Below are positions 3,106 through 4,030 of a stretch of DNA of 4,030 nucleotides, one piece after another. The stretch comes from a virus (taxonomy: Duplodnaviria; Heunggongvirae; Uroviricota; Caudoviricetes), in IMG/VR virus record IMGVR_UViG_2671180878_000023; one strand, written 5' to 3'. Position numbers and translations under genes: made by a program. The number at the start of each line of letters is the position of its first letter. The stretch's first letter is position 1. The notes under the pieces are model-generated. The model was not told where the DNA came from and made no database searches. It saw only the letters and a list, made by a program, of their open reading frames with translations.

Positions 3106-3149
3106 TATTATTGAACATCTGTTTATTTTACTTTTAACATATTGATAAT
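3106..3149 (+). promoter_or_regulatory. AT-rich candidate promoter region upstream of the 46-aa ORF
   Basis: Region 3060-3200 is very AT-rich and contains several near-consensus hexamers, for example TTGAAC (3111-3116) with TAACAT (3135-3140) at 18-nt spacing, and GATAAT (3144-3149). The exact promoter cannot be fixed by eye. Confidence 0.2.
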
Positions 3150-3200
3150 AAAAAGAGCTGTAAATCTTTAGATGAGTCGATTTTGTCCGGGGAAGTTCAA

Positions 3201-3341
3201 ATGGATTTTATGCTGACGGTTTCTGGTGTGGTTATCCTGTCCATTGCTTATACTGCAGATAAATATGGCTGCCATTTGTTATCACGTATTGGCGCTTATT
3301 GCTCGTTGATGCTGATTTTCTCGTCGCTTTTTTTTGAGTAA
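3201..3341 (+). CDS. Candidate small membrane protein, 46 aa (MDFMLTVSGVVILSIAYTADKYGCHLLSRIGAYCSLMLIFSSLFFE)
   Basis: ATG 3201 preceded by GGGGAAG (3189-3195) with 5-nt spacing. Two hydrophobic segments (about residues 3-17 and 33-45), two Cys, reasonable codon usage. Sits in an AT-rich island (3060-3370) with a promoter-like region upstream. Not in the ORF track (short). No family recognised; it does not resemble Hok as I recall it. Confidence 0.4.
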   Translation: MDFMLTVSGVVILSIAYTADKYGCHLLSRIGAYCSLMLIFSSLFFE

Positions 3342-3470
3342 GTTATATTAATTATAACAAATAATTTTCTGTGTTTTTTCAGGCTATCCCGTCAGACGGG
3401 AAGCCTGTACTGCCGGGGGACGAATGGAAAACTGATGTGTCCGGTAACTGTGTGTTCTGTGAACACCATG

Positions 3471-3656
3471 TTACTTAATTATGTAATTCATACCCGAACG
3501 CTCTGTTGACAGCCTTCTTCTGCAGGCTTCAATAACCCACGCTGAAAAGTTACCGGAACCTTTATGTTCAAGGGCGATATTGAGCTGTTCAATCATGTGA
3601 TTGGGGAAACGGATATTGCGGATTGTGGTTCTGCGGGTCCGGTTTTTCGATGACAT
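3471..3656 (-). CDS. Small ribbon-helix-helix-type DNA-binding protein (61 aa), probably DUF3950 / YlcI-like
   Basis: MSSKNRTRRTTIRNIRFPNHMIEQLNIALEHKGSGNFSAWVIEACRRRL... has a basic N-terminus, a short beta-strand (TIRNIRF) and two helices, the pattern of Arc/MetJ/CopG RHH repressors. Strong SD on the minus strand (GAGGAAAG, 5-6 nt upstream of the ATG). I recall E. coli DLP12 YlcI being very similar, but that is memory, not a search. Confidence 0.8.
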   Translation of the reverse strand: MSSKNRTRRTTIRNIRFPNHMIEQLNIALEHKGSGNFSAWVIEACRRRLSTERSGMNYIIK

Positions 3657-3697
3657 TTTCTTTCCTCTGGTGACAAGCTATATGGAGAGGATTTTAC

Positions 3698-4030
3698 ATG
3701 GCTGTGCTTCGTACGTTACCGGGCAGAATCAAAACTCTGAACACCCGGCGGGTGAATGTCCTGAAGGGTGAACAGCGTCGGGTCAGTGGTAGTGCCCGGG
3801 TTTCCCTCAAGCGTCGTATCTGGCTGAGGGATGCCGGACAGTGCTGTCTCTGTGGGCGTGTGGTTGACCTTTGTGACAGTGAACTTGAGCACCGCATTGC
3901 ACTTCAGTTCGGTGGTGGTAATGAGGAGACGAATCTCTGGACGCTCTGTACCGAATGCCATCGACAAAAGTCTGCTCGTGAAGCGGCGAGTGGTATGCCA
4001 GACCCGACGCTGCCGGAGGTGTCCGGAGGT
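3698..4030 (+). CDS. Phage HNH endonuclease (terminase-associated type), 3' end beyond the window
   Basis: ATG 3698 preceded by GGAGAGG (3684-3690). The frame is open to the window end (111 codons), which is why it is absent from the ORF track. Translation carries the HNH/zinc-finger signature: CCLCGRVVDL...ELEHRIALQFGGGNEETNLWTLCTECHRQK (C-x2-C ... H ... N ... C-x2-C-H). HNH genes of this type sit next to the terminase small subunit and cos in HK97-like phages. Confidence 0.88.
   Translation, partial: MAVLRTLPGRIKTLNTRRVNVLKGEQRRVSGSARVSLKRRIWLRDAGQCCLCGRVVDLCDSELEHRIALQFGGGNEETNLWTLCTECHRQKSAREAASGMPDPTLPEVSGG

Follow-up and report, generated by a model that had tools for sequence, protein, structure and literature searches.

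A short minus-strand open reading frame (ORF), located where the lysis genes of a lambdoid prophage give way to the packaging genes, raises the question of what its product does there and whether it controls the HNH endonuclease gene that diverges from it. The window analyzed here, that is the whole stretch of 4,030 bp, covers this lysis-to-packaging (late-region) junction and carries, in order, a class II holin, a lysozyme, Rz/Rz1, two small ORFs, the minus-strand ORF at 3471-3656 and the HNH gene, truncated by the window end. The first-pass annotation had described the small ORF as divergent from the HNH gene with 41 bp between the two start codons, and this layout was borne out exactly (Table 1).

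Table 1. Features of the window and of the matching genome (L001) past the window end
Feature	Position	Strand	Basis or remark
ylcI/ynfO-family gene	3471-3656	-	61 aa, stop 3471-3473; ORF, translation, Pfam/NCBIfam/PHROG matches
Conserved core, residues 1-50	3507-3656	-	Alignment, hhalign register, AF2 helices
Basic N-terminal arm	residues 1-11	-	Alignment
Putative beta-strand, residues 12-18	3603-3623	-	Alignment, hhalign register to Arc
Helix A, residues 19-32	3561-3602	-	Alignment, AF2
G-S-G-N-F-S turn	G33-S34-G35-N36-F37-S38	-	Alignment
Helix B	residues 37-50	-	Alignment; AF2 helix 34-59
Variable C-terminal tail, mosaic junction near codon 45-51	3471-3521	-	Phage matches, homologue alignments
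Imperfect palindrome, core GTGTTCTGTGAACAC at 3452-3466	3444-3474		Repeat search; just beyond ylcI stop
Spacer	3657-3697		41 bp; sequence
Shine-Dalgarno of ylcI, AGAGGA	3663-3668	-	6 nt from ATG
Shine-Dalgarno of HNH, GGAGAGG	3684-3690	+	7 nt from ATG
-10-like TAAAAT	3691-3696	-	Sequence
HNH endonuclease gene	3698-4030	+	ATG 3698, cut by window end; 121 aa in matching genome
HNH	L001 12726-13091		Annotation of matching genome
terS (Terminase_2)	L001 13382-13945		Annotation of matching genome
terL	L001 13942-15603		Annotation of matching genome

Gene order and identity of the divergent pair

The window matched prophages of E. coli O26:H11 11368 and of other cattle/EHEC strains at 100% identity in two aligned pieces. 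The sole gap in the match to O26:H11 11368 falls at window 189/190, where 28 bp (GCCTGAATGCCATAATCACGGCTCCCGG) are absent from the window, just 5' of a terminator-like hairpin (~194-229) that lies ahead of the holin gene; all 15 of the 15 best-matching genomes gave the same two-piece match with 28 extra bases between the pieces. Of 5426 complete E. coli genomes, 1250 contain at least 80% of positions 3471-4030, with up to nine copies each, and RefSeq labels the two genes 'YlcI/YnfO family protein | HNH endonuclease'. The pair is already annotated and very common, and is the ordinary arrangement for such a window.

The small terminase gene that the first-pass annotation proposed to look for downstream of position 4030 is present in the matching genome, where the HNH gene is followed by a 290-bp gap and then by terS, terL, capsid and portal genes. 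The gap, which lies past the window end, presumably holds cos. The HNH, terS and terL genes are all on the same strand as the lysis genes and downstream of them. The HNH ORF carries the motif C49/C50-x-C52, H65, N79 and C84-x2-C87-H88, and matched Pfam PF01844 (E = 4.5e-6, 27.1 bits against a cut-off of 21.4) and phrog_589 (E = 1.7e-39); it is a predicted packaging-associated (HK97 gp74-type) endonuclease of the standard kind. HNH endonucleases of this packaging class act with terminase at cos (PMC3592412).

The 61-aa product of the small ORF (MSSKNRTRRTTIRNIRFPNHMIEQLNIALEHKGSGNFSAWVIEACRRRLSTERSGMNYIIK) is a member of the YlcI/YnfO family (DUF3950 / YlcI_YnfO_N / phrog_949), with matches to Pfam PF13132 (DUF3950; E = 1.3e-18, 67 bits against a cut-off of 25), NCBIfam NF041551 (34.1 bits against a curated cut-off of 30) and phrog_949 (E = 7.6e-31), and with the RefSeq name 'YlcI/YnfO family protein' (WP_001341372.1). 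The family is amongst the most widespread of lambdoid prophage genes, being found in K-12 (ylcI, ynfO), Stx phages and lambda, and has so far had no assigned fold or function. The first-pass annotation had called the role of the small protein unknown, which agrees with the continued listing of ynfO as uncharacterised (PMC11551758), and a literature search found no functional study of DUF3950, ylcI or ynfO.

DUF3950 has few members. Among 1.84 billion representative proteins, just 100 matched it at E<=0.001, and many of these 100 are error-ridden reads of lambda control DNA. In a scan of one genome per species, genuine members occurred only in Enterobacterales. Additionally, the lambda copy of the gene turned up in assemblies of Streptomyces, Cohnella, Pseudomonas, assorted MAGs and others (L007-L045, P0034-P0215), and many ENA proteins from contigs of ~3.5 kb likewise carry it. 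These occurrences in unrelated bacteria evidently reflect contamination with lambda control DNA and error-laden long reads.

Lambda itself carries a homologue at NC_001416 48127-48303 on the minus strand (3128-3304 (-) of the extracted locus L002), where the reference record has no CDS. Its 64-aa product is 78% identical to the window protein, and the gene starts ~200 bp short of the right cohesive end, pointing away from Nu1, which lies on the far side of cos. Homology between the window and lambda starts exactly at the ATG and stops near codon 50, and the DNA upstream of the core in lambda, comprising cos and Nu1, is unrelated to that of the window. Across lambda and the K-12-prophage-type loci of other E. 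coli, E. albertii and Shigella, core identity to the window was 78-88%, with the K-12-prophage-type sequences of other E. coli at ~85-88% over the 50-residue core. Of the first 50 codons, 28 differ between the window and lambda genes; because 22 of these differences are synonymous and only 6 non-synonymous, the ORF is a real gene under purifying selection.

Homologues at 34-56% identity keep the hydrophobic/polar pattern, their indels are confined to the arm and the inter-helix loop, and R16, F37, W40, V41 and C45 are invariant across the alignment of diverse cores. Homologues part ways after 'CRRRL', and near-identical phages align only from window position 3502 or 3522 rightwards. The imperfect palindrome just beyond the stop codon may be a terminator between convergent genes; it is not kept in relatives, whose homology stops at ~3502.

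Two further observations concern the lambda-type and K-12-type relatives. A Fur-box-like sequence, GTAGATGATAATCATTATC, at L002 3448-3466 (lambda 48447-48465) agrees with the 19-bp consensus at 16 of 19 positions, where chance alone predicts 0 such sites. The sequence precedes the ylcI-like start of lambda by ~145 bp and is ~37 bp away from the right end. In K-12-type prophages a DUF1398 gene, which we take to be of the ybcV/ydfO type, follows ylcI on the same strand (L016 6810-7262 (+)), and one database protein (P0162) is a fusion of YlcI and DUF1398 domains.

Resemblance of the conserved core to Arc and Mnt

The label ribbon-helix-helix (RHH), given to the small protein in the first-pass annotation, was examined with a family profile built from 30 diverse YlcI-type cores and a target profile of the Arc family (PF03869) and Mnt, with the Arc sequence verified against PDB 1arq. 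The two profiles aligned in hhalign with a score of 22.9 (P = 1.7e-4, Prob 50%) over the beta-strand and helix A, and none of 200 column-shuffled controls reached this score (maximum 17.8). The alignment spans 26 columns at 19% identity and places N14-I-R16-F17-P18 on Arc N11-L-R13-W14-P15. Further along, a glycine turn and an N-x-S cap precede helix B, in which N36 and S38 are nearly invariant and F37 invariant.

Other searches gave less. A permissive Pfam scan of 17 members returned no match to any RHH family, including Arc, and queries of solved-structure sequences, run with the protein alone and with each of two profiles, stayed at noise level. The best solved-structure match with the first profile was to a CopG RHH protein (E = 1.2), which was not recovered with the 30-core profile. 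AF2 monomer models made with and without an alignment had pLDDT of 59 and 68, a low confidence, and showed helices at 19-32 and 34-59 with no beta-strand. The RHH label is supported: the Arc/Mnt profile match and the sequence pattern speak for it, the fold matches are weak and no structure model is confident, and it falls short of proof. Three independent lines, the profile match, the fold matches and the glycine turn with its N-x-S pattern, point the same way, and we regard an RHH fold for the YlcI/YnfO core as probable.

Palindromes of satellite homologues and the 41-bp spacer

Scanning one genome per species yielded 39 usable divergent loci, of which ~25 are in phage satellites (L049, L051, L054-L057, L059, L061, L064, L067, L068, L071-L077 and L079-L084, around 5850-6000). 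The satellite layout comprises an integrase, AlpA (sometimes with AntA), the YlcI homologue on the opposite strand and then a divergent D5_N/Pox_D5 primase operon; some satellites also have a small terminase and a capsid-like gene. Upstream of the homologue, three to four copies of a 12-bp palindrome, GTG-N6-CAC, lie over both promoters. The palindromes R1 and R2 are 23 bp apart; R2 abuts GTCAA, that is TTGAC on the other strand, which would be the -35 element of the divergent promoter, and R3 coincides in part with a -10-like element, TATAGT or TATTGT, that precedes the homologue. In one sub-group of satellites, where the strand reads I-R-F-E-D, the palindromes are of the form GGTA-NN-TACC and sit directly against the start codon.

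The centres of these palindromes vary between satellites and track the residues just before I-R-F-P. The residues AKKN are paired with a TGCGCA centre, xYKG with TTTAAA, and TTKG with CACATA or CATATA; for example, the L061 homologue (residues 12-14 KKN) has the candidate site GTGTGCGCACAT and the L051 homologue (residues 12-14 YKG) the candidate site TGTTTAAACA. Amongst 20 satellites, the distance between palindromes correlated with the distance between the 13-residue arm and beta-strand segments (r = 0.75, Mantel p<0.001). The remainder of the protein (r = 0.10, p = 0.15) and the integrase (r = 0.10) showed no such correlation, and that with the primase was weak (r = 0.29). The positions that vary align with Arc Q9 and N11; R16, which is invariant, aligns with Arc R13. 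This covariation points to sequence-specific recognition through an RHH beta-ribbon, which would produce just such a pattern. It also argues for a role of the satellite homologues as repressors that would control both themselves and the divergent operon. As the covariation was measured in satellite homologues that are 34-43% identical to the window protein, it is by extension from them that we infer DNA binding by the latter.

Individual loci showed further variations on this family. An 8.8-kb satellite (L003 1218-10046, E. coli CP027459.1) sits inside terL of an HNH-type prophage, and the junction overlaps by 11 bp (L001 14206-14216), which may be the attachment core. The satellite protein P0208 (L003 8001-8363 (+)) joins a YlcI-type domain to the N-terminal DNA-binding domain, and no other part, of a Terminase_2 TerS; this TerS-like part is 66% identical to the TerS of the window prophage and 53% identical to the satellite's own TerS. 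In Salmonella enterica subsp. diarizonae and arizonae (L046 and L047, 5995-6171), a YlcI homologue that is 51% identical lies between sopB (IpgD family, with a type III chaperone) and a C69 peptidase gene, which we take to be the SPI-5 genes sopB, pipC and pipD. It is divergent from sopB and has GTAAC/GTTAC palindromes upstream.

The spacer of the window presents a different picture from the satellite promoters. Its length of 41 bp is identical in JLK-2012, Stx2a_WGPS8 and vB_EcoS-569R3, phages of different genera, and conservation of sequence is seen in its HNH-proximal half, where the ribosome-binding site of HNH is located. The ylcI-proximal half occurs amongst HNH-type relatives in two unrelated versions, CCTCTGGTGACAAGCT and CCTTTACTGATTGCC, and has been replaced in 569R3 and L003; the Shine-Dalgarno sequence is present in both. 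The RTRRTTTRNIRFP arm goes with the second version in L003 and with the first in JLK-2012. No sigma-70-like promoter was predicted on either strand of 3165-4030, and the view that two promoters must overlap within the 41 bp therefore found no footing. A repeat search of the spacer returned no operator-like repeat, the only symmetry being that of the two opposed Shine-Dalgarno sequences. The GTG-N6-CAC palindrome has 0 copies in the window and forms no clusters in L001, at the lambda ends or in K-12-type loci. Within the 44 kb scanned around the prophage, which extend from flanking host DNA across the early region as far as the head genes, no repeated palindromes of the satellite type were found; the scan did detect the satellite L061, its positive control.

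Several local candidates were set aside. An RNA hairpin formed by the two Shine-Dalgarno sequences, which would sequester them in the late transcript, was no stabler than shuffled sequences (z 0.07). The hexamer TGTTCA, with 7 copies against 2.6 expected and 5 of them in 3460-3774, was rejected as an operator because the copies within genes encode conserved residues and have not been retained in relatives. The 8-mer GTTACCGG (CCGGTAAC on the other strand) occurs three times, downstream of ylcI (3441-3448), in the codons of the S-G-N loop (3549-3556) and in HNH codons 6-9 (3715-3722); by a rough estimate such a triple has a chance expectation of ~7%, and the two in-gene copies are not kept in relatives.

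Candidate roles and known counterparts

To the following reading we give a little better than an even chance: the window gene is a free-standing cassette for an Arc-like repressor that acts in trans on a target elsewhere and is expressed when late transcription is silent, with the HNH gene independent of it. The conserved 50-residue core would form an Arc/Mnt-like RHH domain and, by analogy with that fold, a dimer whose beta-strands (12-18) and basic arms would read a short palindromic site. The single-gene cassette, antisense in the late operon at the seam of the lysis and HNH-TerS-TerL packaging genes, would be expressed from a weak promoter of its own while late transcription is off, in the prophage or in early infection, and the oncoming late transcript would shut it down. 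YlcI would serve as a trans-acting, sequence-specific repressor whose site would lie beyond the 41-bp spacer, on phage, host or satellite DNA, and the HNH protein would be made with the late operon and work with terminase at cos independently of YlcI.

Lambdoid late genes are read from a Q-dependent late promoter. HNH, terS and terL follow the lysis genes in the same orientation and would accordingly be transcribed from it, with no promoter of their own required. Expression of ylcI outside lytic growth fits two published observations, both from lambda-type prophages and not the HNH type: 50% or more of the K-12 RNA-seq samples show overlapping ybcW and ylcI transcripts (PMC12288877), and a DUF3950 gene was measurable in uninduced O157 (PMC7709258).

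The alternative raised by the first-pass annotation, that the RHH protein gates the HNH and terminase genes, belongs to a model of local divergent-promoter repression in which YlcI would bind the spacer or the first HNH codons, repress its own promoter and gate a promoter of HNH-terS-terL. Arc and Mnt act at the divergent promoters of the P22 immI region, and the satellite homologues occupy exactly such a layout, with putative operators over divergent promoters; in the window, the constant spacing, the conserved HNH-proximal half and the -10-like TAAAAT on the minus strand also fit. However, the spacer lacks the immI-type combination of operators and two promoters in the intergenic region: besides the two Shine-Dalgarno sequences it has no palindrome or repeat, no sigma-70-like promoter was predicted, and its ylcI-proximal half has been exchanged in 569R3 and L003, relatives that encode the same arm as JLK-2012. 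Lambda-type and K-12-type loci likewise fuse the same core to unrelated upstream DNA, and HNH and the terminase genes fall within the late operon. The packaging genes do not appear to depend on YlcI, and the gating claim found no support at this locus. We consider local repression rather unlikely, and it keeps that much probability because of the satellite homologues at divergent promoters and the strictly kept 41-bp spacing.

A wider reading, unlikely as a whole, has YlcI-type RHH proteins act as immunity repressors that determine specificity in a large group of satellites of enterobacteria, and makes the lambdoid copy their helper-side counterpart, which would either cross-regulate satellites or have had its domain copied by them, as in the YlcI-TerS fusion. 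It would take in the ultra-conserved copies beside packaging genes, including the unannotated lambda gene near the right end. Quite improbable, in our judgment, is a packaging or chromosome-end accessory that would bind near cos and assist or modulate HNH or terminase. Such a role draws on the position of the gene, always immediately before the packaging genes, be they HNH-Terminase_2 or Nu1-A, on the lambda copy within ~200 bp of the right end, and on P0208; it retains some probability because of this constant place beside two unrelated packaging modules and the fusion to a TerS DNA-binding domain. However, lambdoid gene order is conserved anyway, so position is weak evidence; ylcI is antisense to the late transcript made at packaging time; shared 9-mers between the HNH-type and lambda-type flanks revealed no meaningful motif; homologues also occur in non-packaging contexts (satellite regulatory hubs and SPI-5); and lambda cos function is not known to need more than cosQ/N/B, terminase and IHF. 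An orphan antitoxin, or a regulator of a defence or toxin module, as the RHH label had also brought to mind, is very improbable: there is no co-oriented downstream gene, the next ORFs being small and on the other strand, the C-terminal tail, which is the toxin-binding part in antitoxins, is mosaic and not conserved, and PADLOC gave no match. Hardly credible is a conserved cis-acting DNA or RNA element that is open by chance. The conserved block has sharp edges, one mosaic junction falling at the ATG and another near codon 50, which would suit it, but the excess of synonymous differences from lambda, the residue pattern kept in distant homologues with indels only in arm and loop, and the Shine-Dalgarno sequence kept in both spacer versions all speak for a translated gene.

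What is new here is the placement of DUF3950 in the Arc/Mnt RHH class and the covariation of the putative satellite operators with the arm and beta-strand. For the family, this placement yields a concrete and testable hypothesis, namely DNA contact through residues 12-16, and the satellite data are ready-made protein/operator pairs for testing it. Should the satellite homologues prove to be the repressors of those elements, this would close a gap in the understanding of how satellites in Gram-negative bacteria are kept silent.

Comparison with known systems places both genes of the pair more closely. YlcI (DLP12) and YnfO (Qin) of K-12 belong to the same family and occupy the same site between lysis and packaging genes on the opposite strand, but their divergent neighbour is cos with a Nu1 homologue, where the window has HNH and then a Terminase_2 terS, and their C-terminal tail differs from that of the window protein. 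HNH proteins of the HK97 gp74 type have two CxxC pairs in the motif and are encoded directly upstream of terS/terL, as here; the HK97-type gene adjoins cos and terminase.

Rpp of E. coli PICIs mimics the DNA-binding domain of lambda TerS (PMC6739421). By analogy, P0208 could be a packaging-redirecting or interference factor, although Rpp joins a coiled-coil to a Nu1-type mimic and P0208 a YlcI-type domain to a Terminase_2 copy. YlcI itself was rejected as an Rpp-like protein, Rpp being a winged-helix mimic of TerS.

The Stl-type master repressors of SaPIs are divergent from the replication operon, and the YlcI homologue is placed likewise in the ~25 enterobacterial satellites, between int/alpA and the primase operon; the window gene differs in lying in a prophage without such repeats. 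Stl is a large HTH protein and so differs from the fold proposed for YlcI. Arc and Mnt of P22 have defined operators at their divergent promoters, whereas around the window ylcI none were found. Like YlcI, they are small phage-encoded proteins, and they have in common with it the N-x-R-aromatic-P strand and the G...N-x-S turn before helix B.
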